A stretch of 64,000 bases of DNA from a virus (Duplodnaviria > Caudoviricetes). The notes below the pieces were generated by a model. The model searched no databases and was not told the DNA's origin. It saw nothing but the letters and a program-made list of their open reading frames with translations. Where the stretch lies: positions 130,706 through 194,705 of the IMG/VR virus record IMGVR_UViG_2834368228_000004; one strand, written 5' to 3'. This document shows positions 1-21,559 of the stretch, piece by piece. The translations under genes and the position numbers were made by a program. Within the stretch, counting starts at the first letter, position 1. Each line of letters begins with the position of its first letter.

Positions 1-28
1 GAGATTAGAATCACTTGGATTAACATAT

Positions 29-3000
29 TTGCCACCAGCTCAAGGTAATCAAGAGTTGGTGGCAATGTTCAACCCAGTTCAAAGAAGAGATTATTACCAT
101 AATTATAACTATCAAGATAATGTGCAAAAAATGGCCCAAGTTGTGAATCAAAACAATAACAGTAAAGACATTTTTGACAACCAACAAACATATCGGTTGT
201 TGAATAGTTCGCATAGTCGTATGGGGCAAGATCAAATGCGAAAATTTCAAGACTTCTCAACTGCAAATCAATTTTTCACATTTGATATTGAAACACTTGG
301 AAATGCTCTTCATGGTGATAACTTCAGCATTTCTGAAATTGCAGTACAAGGGTTCCAGCGAAATGGAAATAAATTTAAGCCATCTAACCAAAGCTTAACA
401 CTTGTTGGATCACCATCGCAGTCTGTACAAAATGATATGATTCAAGTTATCACTCAATTACGTCAGGATCCATATCAATTCAATAAGTTGGAAGATTGGA
501 AGAAGCGTACGCTTGTTGACTTAACAAGATATTCAACTCGAACCGATGGCGGAGTAACACCTGCTGTTTTTGAAAGTCAAAATGGCAATATGATTAACTT
601 TGGTCATAACAGTTTAGCTAATACCTTCTTTAAAGATGAAAGAATGATTGCTTCAAGAGTTATTGAGAAGATGAGTAATGTGTTACAACATGCAGAGTCA
701 GGTTTAGAAAATCTAAGCGAAAATAAATATGGATTAAACTCTAATCAAATGATTGATCAATTCAATAAATTTGTTCATCAAAACAATGATAGTTATTTCA
801 TATCCTACAATGGAGATTCATTTGATATTCCAAAATTAAAGGCTTTTGGAGAGCAAGCAGGAAATAATCCTATGCTGACTCCCAATAAACATTTAGACTA
901 CTTTCGTGTTATTCAAACAACATTCCCTAATCCTTTAGATTTACATCGCTTATTAAATCAAGATGCAAGCAGACCTAGTACTGGGATGACAAAACTACAA
1001 GCATTCCGCAGTACTTTAGGATACGATACGGAAGCAGCGCACAGTGCTACTCACGATATTGGGTTAGAAGGATTAGCTGGAGTTATACAAGAAAGTAATC
1101 CTCATATTCAAGATAGAATTCAAAATGGCAAAACAAGCATTGGAGATGGATTTAATTTTCAAACTGAAAAGTTTAGTTGGAATGATGCACCAGTAGAGAG
1201 AGGACAGACTTTATTTGCTTTGGGTGGAGTTCGAGCAAGAAGAGATGGCGAATTATCCTTTGCAGCAAAGTTTGATCCAGAAACAGGTGTGTACAATCCG
1301 ATTAATGATTCTTTTAATACAACTATCATTAATGCAAAAACATTCTATGATCTGGAAGGAATCGTTGATTTATCTGATGGAAATACGAATCGATATGGAT
1401 TAAAACTTTACGATCAGGATAGAGATTTACACAACTTTATTATTCGTGAAGGCGACAATGCATTACATGAGATTCAAGACTTTATGCAAAATCGTTTCTA
1501 TAATTGGGATGGTTTAGATAAAGAAACACGTAGAAGAGTATCAGATGCTCGATTAACAGATAGTGCTAGACGGCAGTATGAACGATTGTTTAGTTTGGAG
1601 AAAGCAGGAACTGGAAGGACAGGTGGGTTTAATGCTGCTCAGCGAACGTATCAAAATGCAAAAGTTCTAGAAGAACGTCTTAGTGGAAAAGATAAAAACA
1701 TACAAGGACCTGATTATCATGCGTTAAGGCAGAATCGTATCACTCATGAAAGTATGATGGAGCAGCTTCGTTCTGGATTCGACAGCTTATGGAATCCTGA
1801 AACAAAGTCGTGGGTAAAAAATGAGAGAGAAATGGAAAACTTCTTCCGTATGGGAGAAAGACTTATTTCAGAACGGCCAGCCTTTGAACCTGCCCTAAAA
1901 TATATTGAAAGTCATTTGTCTGAGCCGACACAAAGGGATTTAGCTTGGAATCTATATACAAAGAAAGTAAATGAAGCATTCCCTATGGCAAAAGAGACTA
2001 TTCCTCTACAAGAATTTGAAAACCGAAGAGTTGGATATACAGACTTTAATACAAATACAAAACACTCTTTAGATATGAGTTCATGGAGCTCAACTGAGCA
2101 AAGCATAAGTCGATATGTTTACAGTAGAGATATAAGTCAAAATGGAGATTTAACGCCTGAATTGAGAGAAGATCGATACCGGGAGCGAATGAACCAATTT
2201 TTAAAAACATTACAAGGTAACGATGTTATAAATGAAAATACAGCTAACGAATTAATTAATATTAATAATCAAAGCGCTACAGTTAGAAATGCCATTATCG
2301 AAGCAACAGACATTTTGCAAAGTAAGGTCTTTGACTTTGATAGCACTGTTCAACAAATATCACTTGGATATAATAATGCTATTCAGCAAATGGATTTAGC
2401 AACAAATGAAATAATGTTCCAAGAAGCGGTCAAACAAGTTAGATCCATGAATCAGGTTCGAATCAACCCACAGCAAGTAACAGGTTCAAAAGTTGAATTC
2501 AGTCCAGAGGTAGAAAGAGCACTTCAGCGATTAGATCAATCTCGTTTAAGTGGATTGTCACCGAACAACAGACAAGCGTTAGAAAGTGTTTTGTCTAGTG
2601 TTGTAGGAAACAGCAAATTTAATCAACATCATGTTGCTTTAAGCATGGACCAGCAAACAGCTAATGCTAGAATTTCCATTTACAATCCATCAAATAGTAC
2701 AAGCGTGATTGACGCTATCAGCAGTGGACAGGAGCACCCCAATGCCCTAAGCATTAATGTTCCTTTAGTTGGAGAACATGGTGTACATCAAATTGGAAAT
2801 AGACGTATTAACGCAAGAAGATACATGGATTATCAAGATGGCCAGTTTGTAGTAAGGTCTTCCACTCAACAGCTTGCAGATAATTATACTCGTAATATGA
2901 ACCGAATCTTAAGAGATTTTGATGAAGGGGATATCGAAGGTGCCAATAATCGTGCCAGAAGAGTTCTAAATGAAAGCTTAAGAAATCTTTCTGGAATACA

Positions 3001-6000
3001 GAGAAACTTAACATCTAATGATAGCTTCAACATGAACAATAACCAATCTGACTTTTTCAAACAAGGAAATGTTGAAGTTGATACAGCAATGGTTAAAGAT
3101 TTATATGCAAGAAACAGACTGACAAATGATGATTTTTATACAACAGCATTTGAAGGTGGAAGGTTAAGGCCAGATGTATCAGTAAATGATTTAAAGCCTG
3201 CCAAAGCATATGAAGTTTCATTAGCAGCTGGAGATTGGTTAAGAGATAACAATTTAAATCTCTTTGCAGGAACAAATAAAGGTGAACATGTATCTCAAAT
3301 GATGTTTAACGAACTGGATATTCGAGAATTTCTACCTTATGGTCATTATACGTTCCAAGGTCGAGATAACTCTGTTCAGTTACAAAATGCTCATTTATTA
3401 AACGCTCAAGTGCAAGAAAACATCTTAAATAATACAGAAGGCTATGTGAGCTTTAATGAACTAGTTGCTACTAATAAACAACGAGAATGGGTTAATCATT
3501 GGAGACAAACAAATCCTTCAGACGCAGCAGGAATGCAAATAAAAACAGCCTTCATTAACGATGGAACATTAATGGATCGAATAAACTCACTTTCTGAAAC
3601 AGAAAAAGGTTTAGATCTTCTGCGAGAAGAGGGAATTATCAATGCAGATGGATCATGGAACCACACAAAAATCCCACGTATATATGAACAACAAGGATTG
3701 ATTTCTCAGGACTTACAAGAGCAGGTTAAAGTAACAGAGCAGAAGATTTTATCTGAAACGGACGATGTAACACTATTTCGTAATTCAAGAAATGGAGATA
3801 CTGTTCAACCGGGGCAGGCAATAGGATATGAAATGATTAATGGGTATCAAAGAGAGTTGCGATATCAAGGTCCTAACCCAGGTACCGTTATCCAGCAGAA
3901 TGGTCGTGTAGGTGTTGCGTGGGAAGAAGATGCCTTCAAGTATATCGTTGAAGGGGAGAAAATGACAGATGTTCCTATCAGCAGACGTTTAATGTCCGCT
4001 ATAACCGGTGATGATTCCGTCAGTATGATTCTTAACCCAAACATTAAAAAGCACCGTGACTATGGTATGTTCTTGTCAGGAAAAGCAAAAATATTAGCAG
4101 ACTATGCGCATCAATTAAGTAATGATTTAGTTCAAGCTACAATAGATGCTCCTGTAACAGATAAAGCAAGCAGAAAAGCGTTAAGACGTATGGAGTTAGA
4201 GACTCAGTTTAACCGAACCATAAATCTCGCTTCAACAGTTGGTCTTCATTGGGATGCAAGTAGTAGGTCATTCATTCAAGAAGGAAACCCAAATATACCA
4301 GCAAATAGTTTTGAAAATATATTTGAAGAGCTCGGTTTGGTGGATAGGGATGAGCAAGGAAATGTTCTCCGAAGAATCGACCAATCATCTTTAGGTGACG
4401 AACTTGCGATTCTTGAAGCAAGAGTAAGTAAAGTAAGTAATCACAGTAAAATGATAGATGAAACAGGCCGAATCGTTTTAGAAGTGGGTCATGATAGAGA
4501 TGGTAATATAACGAAGAAATACCGTCGTAATGATTTAGGACAGTTTGAGCATGGTGGAGTGAGCTGGGGTCATCGAGAAATGGGGGTCTTTAAAGACCTA
4601 AATCTCACTGAAACCTATAATAAAGTATATGAAACGATGATGACTCAAGCTCAACAGAATAATAGATTAAATGAAACAAAGAGTATGATTGCAGCTGTTA
4701 GTGGAGCTGTCAATGAAAACCATACATTGGTTTCTGATGCTTCGACATTAAGTGTTGATGATTTTAGATCTCTTCCTGAAATTGATCGTGATACAAATAC
4801 GTATCAACAGACTATTTTTGATCGAGACTACATTGAACGACTGCATGGTAATAATAATGCTCACGGATTTTGGTTGGAGCTCCCAGGTGTTCAGCAAACA
4901 AATGGCGACACAAGAAGAGTGACTGCAAACATAAATGGAAGCAGTGGGGAAAGACAAGCATTAAATCGAATTTTCATTCCATTTACTAACTTAGAAGGAG
5001 CTAATGGAGAAGTTCACTTAAGAGAGCTTCAACGTAGCATTGGTGACATTTACAGGAGAGCAGCAGATGTAATTGGCGCAGGTTCCATTGATGAACGAGC
5101 ACGCTCGATGGACGGTTTGCAGGGTGCTGTGGATCGATACTTTGATCAAACAGTAAAAGATATCACTTCTTCTAAAGGACAAACAGGGAGCAGTGTATTG
5201 AAAGCTAGCATGCCTTCATCTGGAAGCGGCCTGTTTAAATTATTAGATCCATCTGTATCAATGGCGCTTGAAGGTGAATTTACATTTATTTCACCAGATG
5301 ATGCGAAGGCGCTAGGTGTTTATGATAAGTTAAAAACAATTGAGGAGCAGCGGGTAGCTGGAAAGAGTATAGATGATTTAATGGTGATGAATACTCGTTA
5401 TCCAGTGTTCCATAGTGATGCTGTTCAGATTTCAAAATTGCGTGTAAGTGAAGACGCAAGAAAAGGAGAGTTTTTAACTACTTCTTGGCAATCTGATTTA
5501 ATGAAGGCTGACTCCGATGGTGACTATAACAACATTGTTGTCTTAGATGATGATAACATCCAAAAAGAGTGGAGAAGACAATATAATTTACAAGAACAAA
5601 ATCGAGAACAAGCATATCTGGAACAGCTAGGAGATTCTGCTAGAAGCGGACGAGGATTTAATGCAGAGTATGTGCTTGGAGATAATGATGCATTTCGTCC
5701 TTTTGATCCAAATACGCAAGAGGAAATGGCAGCGAAAATTGGTAAACGGGTAGTTGGTTCTGCATCTAACTTAAACTTATATATGAGACAAGTTGCTGAC
5801 CAATATCTAAATCATGGTTCAGAAGAGCGCAGAGCTATTTACGAAATGGGTCAGGATTTAGAGCAAAAGCTTATTTCTTCAAAACATGGATTAACCGTAG
5901 AAGAGGGTCGTGCTCCTGCTATTGAAATGATTAATTCGGTATACAATAATAACTTCAGTGAAGCCAGAAAAATACAGCAAAAGTATTTTAAAGAAGACTT

Positions 6001-6787
6001 CAATTTAGAAATGATGGAAAAAGCTTTCTCTGGTTTAAGTAAAGCATATGAAAACCTAGACCAAGGCCTATATAATCCTTCACTAAAGTTTGGTACATCA
6101 CGAGGATTGAACACAGATGTCGGATTAAAAAATATCCATGACTTACTTCAAGGAGAAGCGGCCATGCATGAGACTGTTCAAACGAACAGCACATTGCGAA
6201 TGCTTCAAAACATTTTAGGAGTAGATAATCAGCAAACATTTACAGACATGGAAGGGAACTCTCATGTTCGAGTAGACCCATATGAATCCAGAAACGCCCA
6301 TATGCGTTCTGATCGATTAGGTGGCATGCAAGGAGCTATTCAGGAATATGGAGTAGATTTATCCGGCGGCTCTGAAGGATTTGGAAACAAGATTTCAGAT
6401 TTGATGGATACTGTTAATAATAATCGAAACTTTAAGTGGGGAATTATTGGAGCGGGGCTTGCACTTGGAGCTCTGGGAGGATACAATATTCTTAGACATA
6501 AAGATCCAATCGAGGCTCCACAAGATGAAATGCATTACACAGTTAACAACTCACCTGTTCAGCCAGCAATAGATATGAATCAAGGGAGCTATTCAGCAAA
6601 TGCTGATATAAGTGTTAATGCACGAGGTGGATCTTTAAATGACAACGAATTGGCACATATGATAAATCAAGGAATGGTAGATTCACAAATGAATCCTAGC
6701 AATCCACGAATAACAATTAACACAACTGATAATACACAGCAGCTTAATCGTTTCTGGTATAGAGATAAGATTGAGGAGAATGTGTAA
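29..6787 (+). CDS. Giant protein: N-terminal DEDDh exonuclease + single-chain two-barrel (beta/beta-prime-like) RNA polymerase + C-terminal hydrophobic segment; probable virion RNAP. May be 5'-partial
   Basis: Exonuclease motifs FDIE (D86/E88), YNGDSFD (D266), HSATHD (H338/D343). RNAP motifs in colinear order: VPLVGEHG, LPYGHYTFQGR, GMQIKTAF, KYIVEGEK, MILNP..R, GGVSWGHRE, DIYRR, LQGAVDRYFD, TRYPVFH, KADSDGD, EQKLISSKHG. The frame is open from nt 2, so the true start may lie before the window. Confidence 0.85.
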   Translation: MPPAQGNQELVAMFNPVQRRDYYHNYNYQDNVQKMAQVVNQNNNSKDIFDNQQTYRLLNSSHSRMGQDQMRKFQDFSTANQFFTFDIETLGNALHGDNFSISEIAVQGFQRNGNKFKPSNQSLTLVGSPSQSVQNDMIQVITQLRQDPYQFNKLEDWKKRTLVDLTRYSTRTDGGVTPAVFESQNGNMINFGHNSLANTFFKDERMIASRVIEKMSNVLQHAESGLENLSENKYGLNSNQMIDQFNKFVHQNNDSYFISYNGDSFDIPKLKAFGEQAGNNPMLTPNKHLDYFRVIQTTFPNPLDLHRLLNQDASRPSTGMTKLQAFRSTLGYDTEAAHSATHDIGLEGLAGVIQESNPHIQDRIQNGKTSIGDGFNFQTEKFSWNDAPVERGQTLFALGGVRARRDGELSFAAKFDPETGVYNPINDSFNTTIINAKTFYDLEGIVDLSDGNTNRYGLKLYDQDRDLHNFIIREGDNALHEIQDFMQNRFYNWDGLDKETRRRVSDARLTDSARRQYERLFSLEKAGTGRTGGFNAAQRTYQNAKVLEERLSGKDKNIQGPDYHALRQNRITHESMMEQLRSGFDSLWNPETKSWVKNEREMENFFRMGERLISERPAFEPALKYIESHLSEPTQRDLAWNLYTKKVNEAFPMAKETIPLQEFENRRVGYTDFNTNTKHSLDMSSWSSTEQSISRYVYSRDISQNGDLTPELREDRYRERMNQFLKTLQGNDVINENTANELININNQSATVRNAIIEATDILQSKVFDFDSTVQQISLGYNNAIQQMDLATNEIMFQEAVKQVRSMNQVRINPQQVTGSKVEFSPEVERALQRLDQSRLSGLSPNNRQALESVLSSVVGNSKFNQHHVALSMDQQTANARISIYNPSNSTSVIDAISSGQEHPNALSINVPLVGEHGVHQIGNRRINARRYMDYQDGQFVVRSSTQQLADNYTRNMNRILRDFDEGDIEGANNRARRVLNESLRNLSGIQRNLTSNDSFNMNNNQSDFFKQGNVEVDTAMVKDLYARNRLTNDDFYTTAFEGGRLRPDVSVNDLKPAKAYEVSLAAGDWLRDNNLNLFAGTNKGEHVSQMMFNELDIREFLPYGHYTFQGRDNSVQLQNAHLLNAQVQENILNNTEGYVSFNELVATNKQREWVNHWRQTNPSDAAGMQIKTAFINDGTLMDRINSLSETEKGLDLLREEGIINADGSWNHTKIPRIYEQQGLISQDLQEQVKVTEQKILSETDDVTLFRNSRNGDTVQPGQAIGYEMINGYQRELRYQGPNPGTVIQQNGRVGVAWEEDAFKYIVEGEKMTDVPISRRLMSAITGDDSVSMILNPNIKKHRDYGMFLSGKAKILADYAHQLSNDLVQATIDAPVTDKASRKALRRMELETQFNRTINLASTVGLHWDASSRSFIQEGNPNIPANSFENIFEELGLVDRDEQGNVLRRIDQSSLGDELAILEARVSKVSNHSKMIDETGRIVLEVGHDRDGNITKKYRRNDLGQFEHGGVSWGHREMGVFKDLNLTETYNKVYETMMTQAQQNNRLNETKSMIAAVSGAVNENHTLVSDASTLSVDDFRSLPEIDRDTNTYQQTIFDRDYIERLHGNNNAHGFWLELPGVQQTNGDTRRVTANINGSSGERQALNRIFIPFTNLEGANGEVHLRELQRSIGDIYRRAADVIGAGSIDERARSMDGLQGAVDRYFDQTVKDITSSKGQTGSSVLKASMPSSGSGLFKLLDPSVSMALEGEFTFISPDDAKALGVYDKLKTIEEQRVAGKSIDDLMVMNTRYPVFHSDAVQISKLRVSEDARKGEFLTTSWQSDLMKADSDGDYNNIVVLDDDNIQKEWRRQYNLQEQNREQAYLEQLGDSARSGRGFNAEYVLGDNDAFRPFDPNTQEEMAAKIGKRVVGSASNLNLYMRQVADQYLNHGSEERRAIYEMGQDLEQKLISSKHGLTVEEGRAPAIEMINSVYNNNFSEARKIQQKYFKEDFNLEMMEKAFSGLSKAYENLDQGLYNPSLKFGTSRGLNTDVGLKNIHDLLQGEAAMHETVQTNSTLRMLQNILGVDNQQTFTDMEGNSHVRVDPYESRNAHMRSDRLGGMQGAIQEYGVDLSGGSEGFGNKISDLMDTVNNNRNFKWGIIGAGLALGALGGYNILRHKDPIEAPQDEMHYTVNNSPVQPAIDMNQGSYSANADISVNARGGSLNDNELAHMINQGMVDSQMNPSNPRITINTTDNTQQLNRFWYRDKIEENV

Positions 6788-6799
6788 GGAGGTTCTTTA

Positions 6800-9700
6800 A
6801 TGGCTACAACATTAGCAGTTGATGACCGGGATTCCCGTTATGGGGTCCTCGGTGATCATTATATGCGTATTGGAGATACACAGTTTTATTTACCTCCAAC
6901 AGATATAAAAGTACATCGAATGATGAAGAATCAAAAGGTTTCTGTAATGCGAGGGAAAAACAGCTTGCCGAAAGAGTCTGGCTATTTTGATCGAGTAATA
7001 ACACTAACTATCTTCTTCCCAGATGTAAGGTCTATAAATGATGAGTTAAGACCTCTATTGGCACAAAGTAAAAAGTGCCCATTTTTACCAATAGAAAACA
7101 CTTATTTAAATGATGCACATAAGGTAGAAGCAATTACAATACAGAATGTTACAGTGCAAACCACACCAGGTTTTCCTAATACATTGCAGGCAATTATTCA
7201 ATGTTATGCATTTGAACCAGCTGCGTACATATATGGTTCTACTGAAAAGACATTTGATGAGATGTTTCATTGGCCATTATTTAGATGGTATTATGGCAGG
7301 CATTTAAAAAAGGTAAAAGTTGTTGATCCTGTCTTCAAGCAATTGTTTGGCAGTAATTCAGATAAGCAATTAACTTACTTTGAGCCTGTAAGTGGAGAGG
7401 TGACAAACGATTTTCAGTTTCGTATTGTAGCTGAAGATGATTTGTTAGCAATACGTGAATGGAACAAAGAGAAGAAAGAGCTAATTAAGGCTTGGCAGGA
7501 AGATAAGAATGGGTCTAGCTTAGGTGATTTCTTCAAAAATGCTATCAGTTCAAAGAAAGATGGAGCTAAGCCTATAACGAAAAAAGGCAAAGAACAACAG
7601 TTTAATGAAGAATATGATGAGTTATATTCAAAAGCAATGTATGAATATGATTTGCATTATGAAACTTGGGACTTAGGAAGAATGGAGCTAGAAGACTTTA
7701 GCATAAGTTTTGAAAACTCTATTTCATCTTATCAATTGCAGATGCATCAATCTCCTGCACACCAATATTTAGGTTCTCAGGATACTGTAATTGTAGCACG
7801 ATTTAAGACAGATGATATGGAGTCTGTTGCCAGTTTAGAAGATCTTATGAGAAGGACATCCTATCTGACACGTGAATACCACAAAGAAGTTTCAAATGGT
7901 TTCCTTGAGATTGACCATCAATTAGCAAGGCTCTATGGAGTGAAAAGTGTTGTCATTGATGATGTAAGTATCAATACAATAGAAGGTATGCCAGGTGTGT
8001 ATGACATTACATTGACCTTAATGGCTTATAATCGTGCTGAAAAGAAAATGCATGAAGTAAGTGCAATGACTTTGGGGTTAGACTGGGATGCAAGTGGTAC
8101 TATTGTAAATCCATACTTACAAAATGCGATGGCAGGATTTAAGAAAATACACACGTCTATTGGAATACAGCAAAATGCAGAACAACAAGCTATTTATAAT
8201 GAACATGTTATTAATGCTTTTCGTGCGGCAGAACTTTATCCAGACTTAGAGCTTCCAACATATGATGAAGTAAGAGAAGCTGGATTTAGTTTAATAAATA
8301 ATAACAATGGAGTCTTTGTAGATCCAGACTTTTTTATAAAGTATGATAGTTTTCAAGACTATGCTCAGCTATTAAGCGAATCTATTGATTCAGGAAGCAG
8401 CGACATCAAAATGTATGATGCCACTGGAGGAACTGCTACGGTTACTAAAGGTGGATTAAAGCTTGATGAAGTTGCTGATAGAAAAGTAGAAGAAATGAAG
8501 ACTATTACAAAAAACAGTGTTCCGAATCTGGGTGTTTCTGAAAACGTCAATGCAAATCAAGATACTACAAATCGTTCTACCCTTGAGATGGAAGCCTTAA
8601 TAAGAAAATCTGCACAGGTATATGAAATTCCTGAAATCTATCCAATAGCTTTTGCGAAAGCATTTGACTCCAAGTTAAGGCATTTTTATGAAGTGGGAGA
8701 CAATCCTGAACTTGGTGGGATCTATAATAGTAGTGCTGGCTCTCCAATTTTTATGGGGTCCAATTTAAACCTTCTAGGTGGAGATAGATCTGCGGATTAT
8801 GCAGGTGTTATGCGTGTTTCCAATCAATATGGGGATGCTAAATTAATTAGTAAAAGCATAGAGTATAATGTTGATGTTGGAATGCGTTACATGAAGTACT
8901 ATTGGGAAGTTGCAGGTTCCATGATGGAAGATGAGAGAATTAATACAGATCGCTTGCATCAAATGTTAGATATTCCTAATACGAGTTTAGACGATAGCTA
9001 CAAAGCGCAATTCATTCTTATGTCTGCTCTCTATTTGCAACATGACCGAGAAATTCTTGCAGTGATGAATAAAGGGCAAGAACCGAGAGCAAGTATCCTT
9101 CGTATTTATGAGCACTTACTAGATGTATTGGATGGAACAGAAGCATGGGGATATGAAAAGTTGCAGAAAGAGTATGGGAAGCTAAAAGTGCAAGATTACA
9201 AGGCCACCATCTATACCGTTGATGATGACAATCCAACTCTTAATATTAAGCAATCTGATATCGATATTGAAGATACAACAGAGTTAGAAAAAACAATGAT
9301 GCATGATATGCTTGAATATGACCGTAGAGGGAGACTTGTTAGGGCTTTCCCAACATTTTTTATGACATTTATTGATGAAGGACAATTTGTAGGAAGTGCA
9401 AAAATGTCAGACCAGTACTTTCACTACAGAGCAATTAGTGACATTACATACAATAATAGTCGGAAGCAAGCTTCCAGTACACTAGTGTGTGAATTAAGTA
9501 ATGTATTCGGCTCCTTAAGTGATAGTGAGAAAGCACAAGATTTAACGCATACTTCATTTGGCGATATGTTCCTTGCATCAATTATGCCAGGCGCTGTTGC
9601 AAAAGCTCAAGAGAGAAGCAGACATCGAAATTCTAACTTCTATAAGAGTATTTATCTTCGTACAGGTGTTAGGGTTCACATGAGAATGGGATATGGAGCA

Positions 9701-12700
9701 AACGCTGCTGAACTGCCAACTATCATGAATGGAACTATAACAAGTCTTCAAAATAATGGAGCAACCATAACAATGATTGCTCAAGACGATGGAATAGAGC
9801 TTACGAATAAATTAAATGCAATGATGGATATTGATCCACAAGATGAAACCAGTGGATTTTTAAGCTCCAAAAAAGAGCCAACGGAAATTATCGATGAGCT
9901 ATTAACTGACTCACGAGGATTATGGTCAAACATTTCTGCATCACTAAGCAACAAAGAATATCAAGATCATGCACTTGGTGTAATGCATTTCGGTGAAACT
10001 GGATTACCTCAAGGAATTGCAGACTTTAAAGATTTATTTACACTTGGAATTATGGAGAGCAGGGATCGGGCTGAAGTAAATATGAATGTTTATCAGACGA
10101 CGGGGCTCCTTCATGAAGATCAAAGCAAATGGTACAACCGATTAAAGGATGGTCTTGGAATTGGAGAATCAGATGAGGTAAATATTAATATTAACCTTTA
10201 TGATAAGACGATATGGGATGTTCTAAACATTGGAGCATCAGTCGGGTCTGACATGATAACAGCGGTCCATCCATTTGGTTTAAGAAGTACTATCTTTTTA
10301 GGGAAACCATACTTCCCAATCACCTATGGATATAAAGTTGACTTAGAATCAGAAAAAGTTGTTGGTGAGAAAATCAAGTCGTTCAAACAACTGCATTCTT
10401 ACGATAGTTACACATCCATTATTAGTAATGGGATTAAAGCTACGGAAGACAATATGTATACTGTTGCAGTAGGGGCATATAACAATGAGGGTAAACTGAA
10501 TGTAACCCCACCAGTTTATGTAGATAGTAATATATGGCCAGAGAAACAAAAGACAGTAAATATTGATACAACATTGAATGCTAAAGGAGTAGCAGCGTTA
10601 GGGGCAGTTCCCTTTATTGGAGATATGTTAAATAAACCAGCTAAATGGTTCTTTGATGAAGGTGTTGCACTTAAAATAACTGCTGCAGGACTACGTGATT
10701 TTGTAAAAGATATGTATGATGGTTATTTGACGGTTCCTGGTGATCCCTCTGTGAAGCCTTACGACACAATGCTACTTCAAGACTTTTATACAGATATGGT
10801 TGGTCCCGCAGATATGAAGGAGATTATTCACGTTATGAATCACGATGTAGGATTCATAACAATGATAAAACCTGATGTAATTGCCTACAATGAAGATCAA
10901 ACTATTTTTAATACCATTGCACGAGCGATGACAGTTGTAGCTTATGCTGCCACTAGAATGATTGCCCACAATATTTTAAAAGCAAAAGGATATACAGGTT
11001 CATTTCCTATTTTAAACGCAGTCTGGTCAAGCACAAAAGAAAAGATGGGTAAAGCTCATCGAACATTTAAAGGAACCGCTTCTAAGGTAACAAATAGAAT
11101 ACCGCAGCTTGATATTGACCGATGGAAGAAAAATGGAACATTTGATAGTCTCTCTAAATCCTTTGGTAATGTTTCTAAGAAAGACTTAGAAGACCTGTTG
11201 AAGAAAGGGCAATTAAATGCATCTAAAACAATAAAAGATTTCAATAAGAAGTATCCTAACTTAAATAAAAAAGCAAGTACAGTTTTATTGAAGGGTGAAA
11301 AGGGAGCTAAGAAAGTTTTGAGTGGTGGAAAGGCTTTGGGATCTGTAGTTAAAGGAGCTTGGAAAGCAAAGCACGCTTTATTAGGACCTGCAGGTATTGT
11401 AACTTTAGCAATAGAAAGTGTAGTTGTATCAGCTCTTAGCTCAACAGTTGGTGAGTTTACTGAAAGATTTTTAATGAATAGGCAAGCTGTAATTATTGTT
11501 CCTCTGAAAAAAGATGGATTTGAGTTCACTGCAGGTATAAATGGAAATAAAGGTTCAGTCGAATCCATACCAGAAGATTTAACAAAGTTTTATGAACATC
11601 TTCCTGGACCGCTTTTAGATATGTATATAAGTGCAGAAAGTGCAAACAGTGAAGATGCAGGAGCTAGATTATTTTCAATTCGAAGTGCTTCATCTCAAAA
11701 AACAGTTGATTTAAGCACCATTTTGAATGGACGGATATCTTCCAGTCATATGTATAAAGATAATGGACTTATTGAAGAGATGTATAAAACAGATGTAGCA
11801 GCAGCAGAGAAAGAGATTGCAGAGCGCTTAGAATATTTAGTTAGCATGACACAAGAAGCTCAAAATGTTCAATATACTCATCTTCAAGAAAAGGATTTGA
11901 GTGCTCAAAGTATTTTCTCTAACTTCCTCAATCTGTTGTTTAAGGGCAGTGATACAGAGACCGAGCAGTGGGATGGTACAGGAAGTATTTCACTTAATGG
12001 TAAAGCTGTTAATCTATCAAAGTATTTTAATAAGCTTGGACCGATGATCGATAAAGAAACAGAAAGACAAGGTGTTCCCCAGTATGCGGAAATATTAAAA
12101 GCAAAAACAATGCAAGAATCTGGTGGTAATTATGAACGATATCCAGATGTCATGCAGTCATCAGAAAGCTTAGGACTCCCTCGAAACTCTATCGGTTTAA
12201 GTCGAAGTTTAGAGCAAGGTGTAAAATACTTCATACAGATGATGAATTCAGCAGGTGGAGATGTCGCCCTAGCTATGCAAGCTTATAACTATGGTGGTGG
12301 ATTTATCAACTATGTTAAAGAGCGTGGTGGAGCATGGACACAAGAATTAGCAAATGCTTTCTCTGACATGAAAGCAAGCCAATTGGGTTGGAAAAGATAT
12401 GGAGATAAAAATTACATTAAAAATATCATGCGCTACTATGAATATCCAAAAGGTGGAACAGATGACGCACCATCCACAATCGGGTCAGAAGGAAGGTCAA
12501 AATATCGATTGAGTTTAAGTCAAGCTAAAAGTCAATTGATTGAAGCTAGAGAAGCTAATGATAGAAAGTTTAATGTTACATTAGTTGGATCAAGTACAAG
12601 CTTGATGAGAAAAGGCACATTTGATTTATTAAATCAAATAGCTCAGGATTATAAAAAGTCTACAGGGAAAACAATTAATATTACAAGTGCTTATCGAGCA

Positions 12701-12982
12701 AATGATCCAAACTGGCATGGTACTGGATATGGGGTAGATATTGATACCCCCAATACAATGAGAAGACTTTCTGGAGGAAAGCTTGGATTTCCAAACGGTA
12801 ATGATAAAAATGAAGCAGTCAAGTTGATTGAAGCATCTATTAAAGCAGGTTTTAGTGGAATTTATTTTGGAGATTGGTTCATTATTGAAAATATGAAACG
12901 CAAATATCCCAAAGTACAATTCACCTATGAACCAAATAATCATCATAATCACTTGCACTTATCATACCCTCTCAAAGGATAG
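6800..12982 (+). CDS. Baseplate hub / tail-associated peptidoglycan hydrolase (degenerate SLT-like, GH23 lysozyme-like and M15 peptidase domains)
   Basis: RBS AAGGAGG. C-terminal MQESGG..DVMQSSES..QAYNYG (CwlT-like lysozyme domain) followed by ITSAYR..HGTGYGVD..HNHLH (Zn peptidase M15). Sits directly before the spike and baseplate genes. Confidence 0.8.
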   Translation: MATTLAVDDRDSRYGVLGDHYMRIGDTQFYLPPTDIKVHRMMKNQKVSVMRGKNSLPKESGYFDRVITLTIFFPDVRSINDELRPLLAQSKKCPFLPIENTYLNDAHKVEAITIQNVTVQTTPGFPNTLQAIIQCYAFEPAAYIYGSTEKTFDEMFHWPLFRWYYGRHLKKVKVVDPVFKQLFGSNSDKQLTYFEPVSGEVTNDFQFRIVAEDDLLAIREWNKEKKELIKAWQEDKNGSSLGDFFKNAISSKKDGAKPITKKGKEQQFNEEYDELYSKAMYEYDLHYETWDLGRMELEDFSISFENSISSYQLQMHQSPAHQYLGSQDTVIVARFKTDDMESVASLEDLMRRTSYLTREYHKEVSNGFLEIDHQLARLYGVKSVVIDDVSINTIEGMPGVYDITLTLMAYNRAEKKMHEVSAMTLGLDWDASGTIVNPYLQNAMAGFKKIHTSIGIQQNAEQQAIYNEHVINAFRAAELYPDLELPTYDEVREAGFSLINNNNGVFVDPDFFIKYDSFQDYAQLLSESIDSGSSDIKMYDATGGTATVTKGGLKLDEVADRKVEEMKTITKNSVPNLGVSENVNANQDTTNRSTLEMEALIRKSAQVYEIPEIYPIAFAKAFDSKLRHFYEVGDNPELGGIYNSSAGSPIFMGSNLNLLGGDRSADYAGVMRVSNQYGDAKLISKSIEYNVDVGMRYMKYYWEVAGSMMEDERINTDRLHQMLDIPNTSLDDSYKAQFILMSALYLQHDREILAVMNKGQEPRASILRIYEHLLDVLDGTEAWGYEKLQKEYGKLKVQDYKATIYTVDDDNPTLNIKQSDIDIEDTTELEKTMMHDMLEYDRRGRLVRAFPTFFMTFIDEGQFVGSAKMSDQYFHYRAISDITYNNSRKQASSTLVCELSNVFGSLSDSEKAQDLTHTSFGDMFLASIMPGAVAKAQERSRHRNSNFYKSIYLRTGVRVHMRMGYGANAAELPTIMNGTITSLQNNGATITMIAQDDGIELTNKLNAMMDIDPQDETSGFLSSKKEPTEIIDELLTDSRGLWSNISASLSNKEYQDHALGVMHFGETGLPQGIADFKDLFTLGIMESRDRAEVNMNVYQTTGLLHEDQSKWYNRLKDGLGIGESDEVNININLYDKTIWDVLNIGASVGSDMITAVHPFGLRSTIFLGKPYFPITYGYKVDLESEKVVGEKIKSFKQLHSYDSYTSIISNGIKATEDNMYTVAVGAYNNEGKLNVTPPVYVDSNIWPEKQKTVNIDTTLNAKGVAALGAVPFIGDMLNKPAKWFFDEGVALKITAAGLRDFVKDMYDGYLTVPGDPSVKPYDTMLLQDFYTDMVGPADMKEIIHVMNHDVGFITMIKPDVIAYNEDQTIFNTIARAMTVVAYAATRMIAHNILKAKGYTGSFPILNAVWSSTKEKMGKAHRTFKGTASKVTNRIPQLDIDRWKKNGTFDSLSKSFGNVSKKDLEDLLKKGQLNASKTIKDFNKKYPNLNKKASTVLLKGEKGAKKVLSGGKALGSVVKGAWKAKHALLGPAGIVTLAIESVVVSALSSTVGEFTERFLMNRQAVIIVPLKKDGFEFTAGINGNKGSVESIPEDLTKFYEHLPGPLLDMYISAESANSEDAGARLFSIRSASSQKTVDLSTILNGRISSSHMYKDNGLIEEMYKTDVAAAEKEIAERLEYLVSMTQEAQNVQYTHLQEKDLSAQSIFSNFLNLLFKGSDTETEQWDGTGSISLNGKAVNLSKYFNKLGPMIDKETERQGVPQYAEILKAKTMQESGGNYERYPDVMQSSESLGLPRNSIGLSRSLEQGVKYFIQMMNSAGGDVALAMQAYNYGGGFINYVKERGGAWTQELANAFSDMKASQLGWKRYGDKNYIKNIMRYYEYPKGGTDDAPSTIGSEGRSKYRLSLSQAKSQLIEAREANDRKFNVTLVGSSTSLMRKGTFDLLNQIAQDYKKSTGKTINITSAYRANDPNWHGTGYGVDIDTPNTMRRLSGGKLGFPNGNDKNEAVKLIEASIKAGFSGIYFGDWFIIENMKRKYPKVQFTYEPNNHHNHLHLSYPLKG

Positions 12983-12994: not shown

Positions 12995-13411
12995 TTGAGT
13001 CGTTTAAGAGAAAGTATATCGAAAGAAGGAGCAAAGCAGTCAAAGGAAGAGAGTTCACATGGTCTAATCGGCCATGTGATTCGCTACCATCCTGAATCAT
13101 TTAAATGTTACTGTGATGAGCATAAAGATCAAGAGTTCAAAGATACAGAAAGACATACAGCAGATGTCAAAGTATATCGTGGGAAAAAAGATGAGATATT
13201 AAAACGTGTCCCTTGTATGGTATACTCCCAAGGAATAATTTCAAATGGGTTAGTAAAAGGAGATCGAGTATGGGTTCAGTTTATTAATGGAGATACTGCT
13301 TTCCCAGTTATCACAGGTTACTATCGTGAACCTTCTCAATGGGAATTGACAAAGAACACATTTCAATATGCTGCTGCAGACTTTTTAGGTGGACTTTTAG
13401 GAGGTGATTAA
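12995..13411 (+). CDS. Baseplate spike protein, gpV/gp5 OB-fold-like
   Basis: GDRVWVQFINGDTAFPVITG matches the gpV/VgrG OB-fold signature; synteny; RBS AGGAGG. Confidence 0.65.
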   Translation: MSRLRESISKEGAKQSKEESSHGLIGHVIRYHPESFKCYCDEHKDQEFKDTERHTADVKVYRGKKDEILKRVPCMVYSQGIISNGLVKGDRVWVQFINGDTAFPVITGYYREPSQWELTKNTFQYAAADFLGGLLGGD

Positions 13412-13413
13412 CT

Positions 13414-13761
13414 TTGGCTAAATGGAAAGACGATTTATATGAGTTTGACCAAAATGTAGATTCCAATATTAATGATTTAGATACGGAGCGAACAGAAGCT
13501 AAAGTTAATGATATTGGGATGATTAATCAATCGAATGGTGTTGGCATATTAGCACGAGACAATGGACGATTAGAAGGTTACGCAGATTATGGATTAGGTT
13601 TTCGTATGGATCCTGAGACACAGAGTCTTTCAATTTTCGCACCTAATCTAAGAATCTTCAGCAATAGTGTGGAAACACATGATTTTAATAAGCAAGTTAC
13701 TTTCATAAAAAATGAATACAAAGATGTTCTTCAAATCATACACCAAAAGGAGGATAATTAA
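13414..13761 (+). CDS. Hypothetical baseplate protein
   Basis: RBS AGGAGG; lies between spike-like and gp25-like genes; short beta-strand pattern. Confidence 0.6.
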   Translation: MAKWKDDLYEFDQNVDSNINDLDTERTEAKVNDIGMINQSNGVGILARDNGRLEGYADYGLGFRMDPETQSLSIFAPNLRIFSNSVETHDFNKQVTFIKNEYKDVLQIIHQKEDN

Positions 13762-14384
13762 TGGCTGGTAATTATAGTGAAACGGATATTTCTTTTTTTG
13801 GACAAGAAATGATTAGAGATTTTGAAGTCATTCCTCATGAAAAAGGATTCTTCCTTCAGTGGGAAAAGTCTGAAGAAGCAGGAGGTTACTCCATTTATCG
13901 TAAACCTATGGGAACAGAGGGATGGGAACTAGTAGTGACATTAGAAGATGGAATAACAAGTTACTTAGACAGTAAACCTCCAATTGACCTACCTTACGAT
14001 TATCGTTTGTATCGTATTCTTGAAGGAGATTTTATGCTAGGTGAAGCTGATAATGCAGGCGGTGTTGACTTTAAGATGACCACAGGACATGAATCAGGAG
14101 CACAGGACGCTACTAATCGGTTACGGACACAGAAAGGTGATTGGAGGTCTCATCCAAATTTAGGAGCTAATTTAGAGCTGTTGGAAGGAGAGTCAAACAC
14201 ACGAGAAACCGGTGAAAGAGGCGTGGAACAAATAAAGGATGCTTTGACATATGATTCACGATTCTCAGATAGTGATGTAACTGTTCGTGCTGTTCCAACT
14301 TCTATTGAGCAAATTGATTTCTACGCTATCATAGATAGTGATAACAGAGAGCCAATAGTAGTTAAAGATACATTAAATTTATAA
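13761..14384 (+). CDS. gp25-like baseplate wedge protein with N-terminal FN3-like domain
   Basis: C-half RLRTQKGDWRSHPNLGANL...IKDALTYDSRF is gp25/GPW-like. N-half LQWEKS..GYSIYRK..SYLD..YDYRL is FN3-like. Confidence 0.7.
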   Translation: MAGNYSETDISFFGQEMIRDFEVIPHEKGFFLQWEKSEEAGGYSIYRKPMGTEGWELVVTLEDGITSYLDSKPPIDLPYDYRLYRILEGDFMLGEADNAGGVDFKMTTGHESGAQDATNRLRTQKGDWRSHPNLGANLELLEGESNTRETGERGVEQIKDALTYDSRFSDSDVTVRAVPTSIEQIDFYAIIDSDNREPIVVKDTLNL

Positions 14385-14395
14385 AGGAGTGATGG

Positions 14396-15241
14396 GTGAT
14401 GTTAGTTAAGAAAAGCGGCCAAGAAATCATACGTGATGCAATGAATTTAATAGCAGAAAATACACCAATCACGAATCTGAACTCTGGAAGTATTGCAAGA
14501 TCAATTGTTGAAGCAACAGCTGGCGAATATGAGAATCTGTATGAATTTGCAGAAGCAGTTCTTCATAATGGCTATTTAAGCAGAGCAGATGAGGAGCATT
14601 TATTATATTTTGGTGAGTTATTTAATTACCCTAGAAGGATAGAAGTTGTCATTGACCCCGAAACAGGGGATAGAATAGAACAGCTTATTACATTAGACAC
14701 CTATCGTTATGAGCTTTCAAAACAAGTAACAGCTGCAGTGTCTTCCAATGAAGAAGCTTTGCGATTAGCAATCTTACCAATATCAGGTGTGCAATCAATT
14801 GTTGGTAAAGAGTATACACATGGTACTGGTAGCTTCAGTTTCATCATAACAACACTTTATGGATTTGATGCAGAAGCAGTTAAGGTTGATGTTGAGAATG
14901 CAATACAAGAGAAGAAAGGCTTTGGAGTTAGGCCAGAGGTTGTGTTGCCAGCAGATATCCCACTTGAAATGCAGCTGCAGATTATTTTTAAAGAGAGCAC
15001 CCCACAGAAAGATAGCATACGCTATAAAATTCAATCAGGATTAATGAATTACTTCGGTAATTTCAAAACAGATCAAGACTTTATTTATAATGATTTTGTA
15101 AAAGAAGTAATGGATATGGACGAAAATATTGTGGATTTTAAGCTTAACTATTTCTACCTTAATGATATGCCCGCCTTGCTTACAAATCACACGGTATTAG
15201 AGGAAGAGCGCATTCGACCACGTTTAATCGATGTTTTATAA
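14396..15241 (+). CDS. Baseplate J-like wedge protein
   Basis: ITNLNSGSIARSIVEA...YLSRADEEHLLYFGELFNYPR...YRYEL pattern; follows the gp25-like gene. Confidence 0.75.
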   Translation: MMLVKKSGQEIIRDAMNLIAENTPITNLNSGSIARSIVEATAGEYENLYEFAEAVLHNGYLSRADEEHLLYFGELFNYPRRIEVVIDPETGDRIEQLITLDTYRYELSKQVTAAVSSNEEALRLAILPISGVQSIVGKEYTHGTGSFSFIITTLYGFDAEAVKVDVENAIQEKKGFGVRPEVVLPADIPLEMQLQIIFKESTPQKDSIRYKIQSGLMNYFGNFKTDQDFIYNDFVKEVMDMDENIVDFKLNYFYLNDMPALLTNHTVLEEERIRPRLIDVL

Positions 15242-15714: not shown

Positions 15715-16857
15715 ATGGACGTAGTTTCACTTGGAAAAGCAATGAGTACATTGCGAAGTATTCAAGAATTAAATGATGCAATTATTGGCCAGAAAGCAGA
15801 AGGGCATTTCAAAACTGTCGATCATCGGTTGGATTGGATAGAAGGACAAGCGGAGAAATTGATTGTGAAAGGAAGCAAGCAAATTGGTTTAAATCAAGGT
15901 TTGTCTTATAACACTGAGGTAGATAATAATAAAATAAAACTACAAGTAGTGGGAAAAACTATAATAAATTCAGAGACGAATTTGTTATTAAATAACTTAA
16001 ACAAAACCTTTGGATTTAGTTTTTCTCCTAATTTGTTTCGGTTTAGTAATCAGGGAGAAAGTGCAATGTTTGATGGTGATCTAGGAAATTTGGGAGCCAA
16101 CTCCTCTATAAGCTCAACTTTTCCTGGATGGTTTCAAATTTCTTTTCATGAAGCTAAAAATCTCTCCAAAATGAGATTTATTTATAATGGGTATGGAAAA
16201 CCAAGAGAATGGAAAGTAGAAGGAAGCAATGATGAAATAGAATTCGATCTTATTTATCATGAAACAAATGAAACCAAAACAGAAATTGACATATTAATAG
16301 AAGACCCAGTTCCTTATCAGTACTATCGCATAACATGGAACAGTATAAGATCTGGAAATAGAATGACAGTTAATGAAGTTGAATTTTACGAGCAAGAAGA
16401 AATAAACACATATTTTCCACAAGGAACATGGACTTCTCCTGTTATAGATTTAGGTATAGGATGGAAAGAAACAAAGTTAGTGGATGTGTTGAAGCAAGAA
16501 ACAGCAAATGCTACGGTTACACTAGAAGTGGCCACCTCCACAGATGGAGTGTCTTTTACACCATTCACACTTTTAGATGAGTCCAATCCACAACAATCAA
16601 GATACGTAAAGATACGTGCAACACTATCAGCAGATGCCGACATTGGTGGAGAAGATAAGACTCACGACTTTGACCAGTCCAGTGAAGAAAACAGATTCAC
16701 CTTGAATGATTATGTAGAAGCTAACGGTGAATTAAAACTTGTAACGTCTTACACAAGCATAGATGAAACACCTACACCAGAAGGAGTAGGGCAAGTATAT
16801 GAGTATGTCATTGATAAGAGCAAGTTTAAGAAAATAGAAAGCATTTCAGTAAACTAA
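15715..16857 (+). CDS. Tail fibre/appendage protein with discoidin (F5/8C-like) domain
   Basis: PREWKVEGSND...YQYYRI...VNEVEFY; N-terminus MDVVSLGKA shared with 21560 and 26392. Confidence 0.7.
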   Translation: MDVVSLGKAMSTLRSIQELNDAIIGQKAEGHFKTVDHRLDWIEGQAEKLIVKGSKQIGLNQGLSYNTEVDNNKIKLQVVGKTIINSETNLLLNNLNKTFGFSFSPNLFRFSNQGESAMFDGDLGNLGANSSISSTFPGWFQISFHEAKNLSKMRFIYNGYGKPREWKVEGSNDEIEFDLIYHETNETKTEIDILIEDPVPYQYYRITWNSIRSGNRMTVNEVEFYEQEEINTYFPQGTWTSPVIDLGIGWKETKLVDVLKQETANATVTLEVATSTDGVSFTPFTLLDESNPQQSRYVKIRATLSADADIGGEDKTHDFDQSSEENRFTLNDYVEANGELKLVTSYTSIDETPTPEGVGQVYEYVIDKSKFKKIESISVN

Positions 16858-16872
16858 AAGGAGAGATATAAA

Positions 16873-17280
16873 ATGTCTATAGATGAAACTTATTCGAGAA
16901 CATATATAGCATTCTGTGGTGCAGATTTAATGGTAACAATTAACGGTGAAATCGTAGGAGAATTACAAGAGCTAAATTGGGAAGAAGATTTCTTTGCTTC
17001 AGACGAGTATACAATTAATGGGGAAGCTTTATTCGTTACTTTTGAATACGAGCTTGATCTATATAAACTAGCTAAAGAAAAAAGAGAATTCAATATCTGC
17101 ATTGCTTATGCAGCTGAATATGGTAAAAAAATGTATTACAGAATTTATGATTGCTTACTAACAAAGCGAGCAGGAAAACATGCTGTAGATGATATCGTCA
17201 TTAATGAAAAGTATTACTTCAAAGCAAAGAGAATTGAAAAGATAACAGGTGAAAAAGCAGATTTTATATTAAGTAAGTAG
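16873..17280 (+). CDS. Putative tail-tube-like paralog
   Basis: TYIAFCGADL..GELQEL...DDIVINEKYYFKAK resembles tube-fold proteins of large Bacillota myoviruses (from recall, unverified). Confidence 0.4.
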   Translation: MSIDETYSRTYIAFCGADLMVTINGEIVGELQELNWEEDFFASDEYTINGEALFVTFEYELDLYKLAKEKREFNICIAYAAEYGKKMYYRIYDCLLTKRAGKHAVDDIVINEKYYFKAKRIEKITGEKADFILSK

Positions 17281-17292
17281 AGGTGAATTGAT

Positions 17293-18417
17293 ATGCCAGT
17301 ACCAGCTACAACGGGTAGTTTAAAAACAAGCATTCACGATATGGAGATAGGGGATTATATAGTTGCAAGTTCTCATAGAGCAAGCTCTTCATCTGTACCA
17401 AGGTTAAATACTAACATGGGAAATGAACATGTGTTAAATAGCGGTAGCTATGAAGATGTGTATTCAGGAACAACAACTGGATCTATTCTTTTCTATTACG
17501 TGAAAGTAGCAAAAGGTTTGCTTATAAGTGATCGTGTAATTTACCATACTATTTCGTGGGATTTACTGAATACAAATAAACTTATACAAGAATTACCTTG
17601 GGACAATGGAAACATTATCCCCATTATGACAAGTAATAATTCTCCTAGTGGAGTGGCTAGTGCGAGTGGGGAATATGTAGAGCCTCTTAATAACAGTAAG
17701 GTTTACAGAGCATGGGAAGCTTTTCATGATAATTATACTGGTTGGTTATCAGATACTCCTGGAAGAGGTTGGCTTTCATATCAGTTCGCCAAAGCAGAGA
17801 TTGTAAACGGCTATAAATTTAAATCCTCAGGTTCTATGTATAATTTAGAGCAAGCACCTAAATCATGGACATTTGAAGGCTTTGATGGTGAGAACTGGGT
17901 CATACTTGATGAACAAAAAGATGTAACAAATTGGATTGAAGGTGAATATAAGTCATTCAGTTTTTCAAATTCAACTCCTTATTTAACTTATAGAATACTT
18001 GTCACAGAAAACCAGAATACCAGTAGAGTTGTTAATATAGGGCATTTAGAAATGTATGACACAGCAGGCACTATACGCTCCCTTACAGGAGGAGTAGCTT
18101 ATGCAGATGAGAATGGAAATAAAAGTACAATGGATCAAAGCTTTGGAGCATGGCCGACCAATAATGAATGGGATCGTTATATTGTAAACTTTCCTGAAGA
18201 GAAGATACAAGTAGGTAAGACACTAGATGATGTGTTTCATTCGAGTAATATTAGAGCGTGGACTCAAGACACTCCAGATGTAAACCTATCTTCAGGAAGT
18301 CCTTCTAGTAGGGTTACAAGAGGAGGAGGAAGTGGGGTAGAAAATGTTGTATTCTACACATCAAGTGGAGCCACTACAACAAATGGATTTCGTCCGTGTT
18401 TTGAGTATAAAGAATAA
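17293..18417 (+). CDS. Receptor-binding protein: CLec/FGE-like fold with inserted discoidin domain
   Basis: ISWDLLN...[IPIMTSNNSPSG...APKSWTFEG...YRIL]...NNEWD...RVTRGG...GFRP. Confidence 0.65.
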   Translation: MPVPATTGSLKTSIHDMEIGDYIVASSHRASSSSVPRLNTNMGNEHVLNSGSYEDVYSGTTTGSILFYYVKVAKGLLISDRVIYHTISWDLLNTNKLIQELPWDNGNIIPIMTSNNSPSGVASASGEYVEPLNNSKVYRAWEAFHDNYTGWLSDTPGRGWLSYQFAKAEIVNGYKFKSSGSMYNLEQAPKSWTFEGFDGENWVILDEQKDVTNWIEGEYKSFSFSNSTPYLTYRILVTENQNTSRVVNIGHLEMYDTAGTIRSLTGGVAYADENGNKSTMDQSFGAWPTNNEWDRYIVNFPEEKIQVGKTLDDVFHSSNIRAWTQDTPDVNLSSGSPSSRVTRGGGSGVENVVFYTSSGATTTNGFRPCFEYKE

Positions 18418-18434
18418 AGGTAGGTGAATAAAGA

Positions 18435-21470: not shown

Positions 21471-21490
21471 AAAGCCCTTCCTTCTTTTTA
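21463..21490 (+). terminator. Putative intrinsic terminator
   Basis: GGGCTT-AAA-AAGCCC hairpin followed by a T-rich tract at the gene end. Confidence 0.5.
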
Positions 21491-21500
21491 TTTGATACGT

Positions 21501-21528: not shown

Positions 21529-21559
21529 TTATTAAACCACCTTACAGAGGAGGTATTAA

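Follow-up and report, generated by a model that had tools for sequence, protein, structure and literature searches.

What is the giant protein encoded just ahead of the baseplate genes in a 64,000-nucleotide stretch of phage DNA: a tail tape measure, an enzyme, or an enzyme carried on a tape-measure-like anchor? The stretch, here called the window, covers positions 130,706 to 194,705 of IMG/VR record IMGVR_UViG_2834368228_000004 (Caudoviricetes). Its first gene, indicated as open reading frame 1 (ORF1), had been taken in an initial annotation for an RNA polymerase (RNAP) lying in the tape-measure slot, and possibly acting as the tape measure. The analysis reported here, based on family alignments and on structures predicted by AlphaFold2 (AF2), leads to a partly different answer: ORF1 is probably a virion-delivered, injected exonuclease-RNAP of a jumbo myophage of the 0305phi8-36 type, a cargo on a tape-measure-type anchor and not a classical ruler. 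Its chain is composed of three parts: a DEDDh exonuclease, a two-barrel RNAP and a C-terminal "address tag" common to proteins of the tape-measure slot. The features are as follows, with positions in nucleotides (nt) of the window and in amino acids (aa) of ORF1.

2-6787, + strand: ORF1, giant predicted exonuclease-RNAP protein; 2,261 aa within the window, 2,267 aa in full, ~256 kDa, isoelectric point ~5.4
260-1126, + strand: predicted DEDDh 3'-5' exonuclease domain, aa ~87-375; D95 and E97 (nt 284-292), D275 (nt 824-826), H347 and D352 (nt 1040-1057)
1127-3253, + strand: middle region, aa ~376-1084; mixed alpha/beta domains, confidently folded in the AF2 model
3254-4657, + strand: predicted beta-like RNAP module, aa ~1085-1552, from beta-subunit matches by VIA-align; invariant K1313 (nt 3938-3940) and K1320 (nt 3959-3961)
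4706-6295, + strand: predicted beta'-like RNAP module, aa ~1569-2098; RYP at nt 5396-5404 (R1799, P1801), catalytic DSDGD at nt 5510-5524 (D1837, D1839, D1841)
6437-6493, + strand: conserved Gly/Ala-rich hydrophobic helix WGIIGAGLALGALGGYNIL, aa 2146-2164, from hydropathy, alignment and AF2
6599-6784, + strand: small C-terminal beta-alpha-beta-alpha domain, aa ~2200-2261, from AF2; together with the hydrophobic helix, the "slot-protein" anchor module

The frame is truncated at the window edge, its first six codons lying upstream of window base 1. A database copy of the protein (P0002) is 2,267 aa long and starts six codons before the window; on a 98%-identical metagenome contig, L003, the gene is found at L003:10001-16804. 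Because this copy begins upstream of the window, the TTG at 29 is not the start of ORF1: of the gene originally placed at 29-6800, the extent stands, while the start has to be moved.

The RNAP is identified from invariant motifs and structure prediction, as the sequence libraries are silent: searches with Pfam, PHROG and the PDB sequences returned no RNAP match for ORF1, and the one match from a profile search of the PDB sequences was to the ExoII motif of family B DNA polymerases. Among 43 aligned homologues, with identities down to 18%, K1313 and K1320 (FK..GEK), R1799 and P1801 (RYP) and the three aspartates D1837, D1839 and D1841 (DSDGD) are invariant in 43 of the 43 sequences. These are seven of the eight residues described as universal in two-barrel RNAPs by Ruprich-Robert and Thuriaux (PMC2919709). 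In the AF2 model of the C-terminal half (aa 1085-2261; predicted local distance difference test, pLDDT, 83.9; predicted template modelling score, pTM, 0.79), a beta'-type double-psi beta-barrel carries the DxDxD triad, preceded by R-x-P, and a beta-type barrel supplies the two invariant lysines. Two elements conserved after the catalytic barrel, a long helix with G1919 and a KHG loop (K1961-G1963), look like the bridge helix and the trigger loop.

Structural comparisons point the same way. Foldseek gave 500 or more PDB matches to this model at E <= 0.001, and all of those listed are beta' chains of bacteria (best E ~1e-7). By VIA-align, model residues 1-468 correspond to beta-type subunits, with Z between 12 and 15.4: the best is the phiKZ non-virion RNAP (7ogp_C, Z 15.4, root-mean-square deviation 4.5, 294 aligned residues), followed by Xanthomonas beta (6j9e_C, Z 14.4), AR9 (7s00_C, Z 14.3) and Pol I subunit 2 (Z 14.0). 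Model residues ~485-1014 correspond to Rpb1/beta' (Z 10-11.3), with matches to double-psi beta-barrel domains at residues 655-785 (Z 7.5-9.3). When the core is compared as a whole, the matches are to QDE-1 (Z 11.8, 393 aligned residues), plant RDR2 (Z 11.6), P74 gp62 (Z 9.2), P23-45 gp96 (Z 7.0, 307 residues) and crAss-like gp66 (Z 6.9, 442 residues). As modelled, the C-terminal half is a complete single-chain two-barrel RNAP, in which the beta-like module precedes the beta'-like one.

In BFVD, the fused-RNAP fold of the ORF1 model recurs in A0A8S5SD80 (E 3e-20), which is labelled "minor tail protein" and comes from an uncultured siphovirus. Acinetobacter phage vB_AbaM_ME3 and Microcystis phage MaMV-DC have it too, in proteins that are uncharacterised. 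RNAPs linked to tails, or not annotated as such, may be more widely distributed.

The N-terminal half (aa 1-1100), modelled as a compact structure (pLDDT 86.7, pTM 0.76), carries an intact DEDDh 3'-5' exonuclease, whose activity is predicted. Its RNase H-like fold bears all the motifs of the DnaQ/RNase T group (D-x-E of ExoI, D of ExoII, H-x4-D of ExoIII), and D95, E97, D275, H347 and D352 are invariant across 42 aligned sequences. The fold matches E. coli ExoI (Z 15.9) and Pol III epsilon (Z 14.6, root-mean-square deviation 2.5 over 167 aligned residues); RNase T and TREX1 are also found by Foldseek. For ORF1, Pfam and PHROG give only weak exonuclease matches, that to Pfam RNase_H_2 being below threshold. 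Possible roles of the exonuclease are the trimming or proofreading of transcripts, or an attack on the nucleic acids of the host. No fold could be assigned to the following residues, aa 376-1084, because the exonuclease domain filled the fold-search lists of this half.

ORF1 belongs to a large family: an exhaustive profile search found relatives in 98 clusters at 50% identity, nearly all of 2,100-2,900 aa, while a scan of genome contigs found no relative. The closest isolated relatives of the phage are Bacillus phage 0305phi8-36, Moorella phage MTATph1 and Bacillus phages Edson, WH1 and KLEB27-3. WH1 gp095 (2,515 aa, KADHDGD) and KLEB27-3 gp034 (2,434 aa, KADYDGD) are full-length homologues of ORF1. 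A hidden Markov model (HMM) of the family was needed to see this, since tblastn of ORF1 in the phage collection reached no phages but Edson and WH1, with matches confined to aa 62-732. BLASTP gave no significant match of ORF1 to 0305phi8-36 gp145 and gp146 or to Moorella CDS0026 and CDS0027. The family members checked in isolated phages are labelled "hypothetical", "structural" or "virion structural", with no function named.

A feature common to the family is the exclusion of cysteine. ORF1 has none in 2,261 aa; from the mean of the window proteins (0.35%) about eight would be expected (P ~3e-4, for ORF1 alone). Cysteine is equally absent from 71 of the 72 family members longer than 1,800 aa, and also from 0305phi8-36 gp145 and gp146, from the proteins in the gp145 and gp146 slots of WH1 and KLEB27-3, from Moorella CDS0026 and CDS0027, and from the gp145-like protein encoded upstream of ORF1. 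The Cys-based Zn-binding sites of a canonical beta' subunit are thus lacking in ORF1 and in 71 of its 72 relatives, as had been anticipated for ORF1 by the initial annotation; the RNAP it had named is borne out as a two-barrel enzyme devoid of these sites, on the seven invariant catalytic residues and the AF2 fold matches. The protein had also been called N/Q-rich. This is mildly so here (15.8%, versus ~9-13% for most neighbours) and is no conserved trait, the content across the family being 6-16%; N/Q richness was accordingly discarded as a meaningful character.

The position of the gene links it to the tail. The neighbouring features are the following.

L003:4149-9989, immediately upstream of the window: 1,946-aa gp145-like protein, Cys-free, directly after a two-gene tail chaperone; homologue of 0305phi8-36 gp145, WH1 gp096 and Moorella CDS0026
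6800-12982, + strand: 2,060-aa baseplate hub protein, lysozyme-like in its C-terminal domain; homologous to 0305phi8-36 gp147
12995-15241, + strand: small spike and baseplate genes (phrog_975, phrog_6), including a gpJ-like wedge (phrog_6) at 14396-15241; syntenic with 0305phi8-36 gp148-151

The genes flanking ORF1 all lie on the same strand, with spacers of 11-12 nt around it. 0305phi8-36 carries, in this order, gp143/144 (a tail chaperone of two genes), gp145 (1,930 aa), gp146 (2,537 aa), gp147 (hub), gp148 (gpV-like) and gp151 (gpJ-like); both giants are virion proteins by mass spectrometry, and gp146, a "hypothetical tape measure", was so called from the correlation with the length of the tail, 486 nm. 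The contig extending upstream of the window carries a chaperone pair, the 1,946-aa gene, ORF1 and the hub, in the same order as 0305phi8-36: ORF1 therefore lies in the gp146 "tape-measure" slot, with the hub directly after it, as initially proposed. The two small genes forming the pair share phrog_29362, in line with the two-gene tail chaperone pattern of Hardies et al. (PMC2147016). Five phage lineages keep strictly to this arrangement of chaperones, two giants and hub. Between chaperones and hub, ORF1 is one gene away from the chaperones, with the gp145-like gene in between. The look upstream for a separate tape measure and for chaperones, suggested at the outset, had therefore a mixed outcome: the chaperone pair and a giant gene are there, and the giant has no Pfam or PHROG family and no usable match in the ESM Atlas. 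It carries two Gly-rich hydrophobic segments and, of the two giants, is the better conserved.

The C-terminus links ORF1 to the slot more directly. An HMM was built from the last 150 aa of 71 family members, and 2,000 composition-matched shuffles were used as decoys: the C-terminus of 0305phi8-36 gp146 scores 41.9 bits and Moorella CDS0031 55.2 bits, the best decoy 7.5 bits. The module common to the three proteins is ~140 aa long, consists of the hydrophobic helix and a ~60-aa terminal domain, and is encoded right before the hub; in both module and synteny ORF1 belongs with the slot proteins of 0305phi8-36. Hardies et al. (PMC2147016) had aligned gp146 with its counterparts in the BtI1 and BwK1 prophage-like elements over the last 60 residues only. 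The helix is the sole hydrophobic segment of ORF1, with a modest Kyte-Doolittle mean of 1.37. Two early observations are thus upheld, namely a Gly-rich hydrophobic segment, now placed at aa 2146-2164, conserved and modelled as a helix, and C-terminal strands resembling those of tape measures, which belong to the conserved module homologous to gp146. No DxDxD motif is present anywhere in gp146. In Moorella phage MTATph1 the slot gene (L002:7766-15122), also without DxDxD, is apparently split by a transposase, CDS0028, between CDS0027, which carries an RNase T-type exonuclease (PF00929), and CDS0031, which carries the C-terminal anchor. A conserved C-terminal anchor with interchangeable cargo is the simplest reading suggested by these sequences. 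Since the anchor is shared with gp146, a virion protein verified by mass spectrometry, it also indicates, indirectly, that ORF1 is built into the particle.

A second RNAP is found in relatives of this phage. A YonO/QDE-1-type enzyme (PF05183) is encoded in G001 (L014), whose ORF1 homologue is 56% identical, in G002 (L015), a complete 216-kb genome, and in 0305phi8-36, as gp99 (L013). Two of the four related phage records searched have it (G001 and G002), while none was detected in WH1 and G003. These proteins are ~1,165-1,246 aa long, with a GADxDGD motif and 3-10 cysteines. None was found in the window or in L003, which span only structural genes. A virion and a non-virion RNAP are similarly paired in P23-45, phiKZ/AR9 and N4.

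From these data a working model can be proposed. ORF1 would be expressed late, together with the tail genes, and docked by its C-terminal module at the tail-tip/hub assembly, beside the gp145-like giant partner. On contraction, it would be expelled through the tail in a non-native, extended state and would refold with neither disulfides nor Zn sites; the hydrophobic helix may keep it at the membrane. Transcription of the first phage genes by ORF1 would follow as the DNA enters, and would later pass to a second RNAP of the phage, YonO-like, and/or to that of the host. The exclusion of cysteine fits the need to cross the envelope unfolded. The lumen of a contractile tail is ~4 nm in diameter; a 486-nm tube of this width encloses ~6,100 nm3, with room for several copies of both giants only if they are non-globular.

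Several points weigh against this model. The presence of ORF1 in the virion is predicted from genes and models, and the status of WH1 gp095 and KLEB27-3 gp034 as structural proteins is taken from their GenBank annotation. The sole slot protein for which mass-spectrometry evidence was found, gp146, shares just the C-terminal module and is devoid of the catalytic motif. A folded RNAP core cannot fit a ~4 nm lumen, so storage there needs an unfolded state, and we know of no phage in which such a state has been demonstrated. The putative membrane helix is merely moderately hydrophobic. As for the enzyme, its polymerase activity is predicted from modelled fold and motifs, and for the eighth universal residue, an acidic one of the beta-like barrel (Rpb2 D837, QDE-1 D709), a nearly invariant E1229 (YEQQ) is a mere candidate.

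ORF1 could itself be the tail tape measure, extended, unfolded or differently folded along the lumen, setting the tail length and becoming an enzyme only after ejection. It shares with gp146 both the C-terminal module and the slot from which the tape-measure role was assigned; its length is kept at 2,100-2,900 aa over the 98 clusters, and P23-45 offers a precedent. Conserved domains, however, explain a conserved length equally well, and the chain does not have the mostly extended alpha-helical, non-globular character of a tape measure: both halves are predicted as compact alpha/beta structures (pLDDT 84-87), and ~2,080 of the 2,261 residues (~92%) form compact globular enzyme or further folded domains, the non-globular part being confined to aa ~2090-2200 (disordered linker and hydrophobic helix). 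Because nearly the whole chain is predicted to be globular, ORF1 is unlike a helical ruler, while P23-45 gp96 adds ~3,800 non-polymerase residues to its RNAP. No tape-measure profile of Pfam or PHROG matches ORF1, which is weak evidence, as tape measures diverge fast. The gp145-like protein, encoded next to the chaperones by the better conserved gene, is moreover an equally good or better candidate for the ruler, or alternatively a candidate second ejected protein. The initial suggestion that the RNAP is the tape measure is therefore not sustained, and this role is considered unlikely for ORF1.

Storage in the capsid is a further alternative, to which only a small probability is given: ORF1 would be ejection cargo as in N4, crAss-like and phiKZ phages, and its position in the tail block a mere neighbourhood. 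To our knowledge, the other giant virion RNAPs that have been studied well are all carried in the head, and a capsid, unlike a tube, has room for a folded enzyme of 256 kDa. Abstracts on giant virion RNAPs, taken as such, describe them as virion-packaged or injected and add nothing further on the storage site. Capsid storage leaves unexplained why the C-terminal module is specific to tape-measure-slot proteins, including ones without a polymerase, and why the gene order from chaperones to hub is so strict in the five lineages. Very unlikely is, finally, a role outside the virion, as a late polymerase/nuclease inside the cell, serving for example late transcription, priming or the processing of genome ends, whose gene happens to lie among structural genes. 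That the virion status of this exact protein is inferred leaves room for such a role, and the fusion to a DEDDh exonuclease is a typical trait of enzymes of replication and repair; but the family-wide loss of cysteine, common to the gp145-like neighbour, the hydrophobic helix with the gp146-type C-terminus and the annotation of homologues as structural all argue against it, and the relatives already own a separate YonO-like RNAP for intracellular use. An injected exonuclease-RNAP, carried on a tape-measure-type anchor, thus remains the favoured interpretation.

Other giant genes are found further along the window. Positions 15715-26991 encode a series of paralogous tail proteins, sharing phrog_17517, phrog_38477 and phrog_16348 modules, which resembles a combinatorial receptor-binding cassette. 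Positions 29054-41905 encode two giants of virion type (2,077 and 2,193 aa), in which PA14, Big_1/invasin and thrombospondin-C-like domains are found, and positions 45752-50218 a 1,488-aa protein with a VWA domain; these three are probably fibres or adhesins, like 0305phi8-36 gp163/164.

The only published tape-measure-linked RNAPs found are those of one group of Thermus siphoviruses; ORF1 would extend them to a widespread family (98 clusters) and to contractile-tailed jumbo phages of Bacillus-type hosts. A modular rule is suggested, in which a conserved C-terminal anchor loads interchangeable giant cargo into the tail, and a testable route is opened to how very large enzymes are stored in virions and pass a 4-nm tube. 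The protein, as modelled, would also be a new, deeply divergent, Cys-free single-chain RNAP for evolutionary and biotechnological study. A bolder and rather doubtful proposal is that the family represents the first two-barrel polymerase with its own DEDDh exonuclease on one chain, delivered via a contractile tail and doing more than transcribe. The pair could then be a self-proofreading polymerase at the entry pore, or a primer-making or DNA-synthesising enzyme (archaeal PolD is two-barrel as well); an injected nuclease-polymerase could also start phage expression and, at the same time, clear immune signals or nucleic acid of the host. On this bolder view, the extreme tail length of these lineages would be an adaptation to a megadalton enzyme cargo carried in the lumen.

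Among known systems, different proteins resemble ORF1 in different parts. 0305phi8-36 gp146 occupies the same slot, is of similar size (2,537 aa), is Cys-free and ends in a homologous ~140-aa module; it has, however, neither DxDxD nor detectable exonuclease motifs, nor any similarity beyond the C-terminus. The gp66 protein of crAss-like phage phi14:2 (PDB 6vr4) is also a giant single chain (~2,180 aa) with the barrels fused in its C-terminal part, but it is capsid cargo of a podovirus-like phage, with a DFDID motif and without exonuclease or tail-slot anchor. In YonO/QDE-1 proteins (PF05183, including 0305phi8-36 gp99), as in ORF1, a beta-like barrel is followed by a beta'-like one on a single chain; ORF1, in contrast, has no PF05183 match, and its family HMM misses the YonO-like proteins of the relatives, which are shorter (~1,170-1,250 aa), contain cysteine and, in 0305phi8-36, are non-virion. 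In the portions of the 0305phi8-36 literature covered here, this YonO-like enzyme is the only one reported as RNAP (PMC2147016, PMC2919709). The phiKZ/AR9 enzymes provide the best structural matches to the beta-like module, and there too the work is split between virion and non-virion RNAPs; they differ from ORF1 in being composed of 4-5 separate subunits, without exonuclease or tail anchor.

The closest parallel in concept is gp96 of Thermus phage P23-45, experimentally shown to be a tape-measure-fused virion RNAP (Chaban et al. 2024, PMC10770324; PDB 8h2n/8h2m). In the part of the supplementary files of that paper covered here, text searches returned neither a DSDGD motif nor any mention of 0305phi8-36, Moorella or phage ME3; the Bacillus phages that appear in it are phiKZ-related ones only. 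Both proteins feature a two-barrel RNAP within a giant chain at the tape-measure position, a hydrophobic or membrane segment and a DxDGD site; in both the RNAP is unrecognisable from the overall sequence, and their folds match (Z 7.0 over 307 residues). In both lineages, moreover, tails are exceptionally long, and a second, non-virion two-barrel RNAP is encoded, for ORF1 in relatives of the phage. The core of ORF1 is nevertheless closer to beta/beta' (Z 15.4) and QDE-1 (Z 11.8) than to gp96 (Z 7.0), and the architectures differ: in gp96, from a siphovirus, the RNAP is N-terminal (1-1200) and is followed by a tape measure of ~3,800 aa with a metallopeptidase, while ORF1 has neither an N-terminal RNAP nor a tape-measure body of several thousand residues. 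Its RNAP lies in the C-terminal half, after a DEDDh exonuclease and ~700 aa of unassigned domains, with ~170 non-globular residues, a separate giant partner gene and a contractile-tailed jumbo phage as its setting. The concept thus has its precedent in P23-45 gp96 (PMC10770324), while ORF1 differs from it in domain order, in having an exonuclease and a separate giant partner, in having no ruler body, and in its setting in a contractile jumbo phage.

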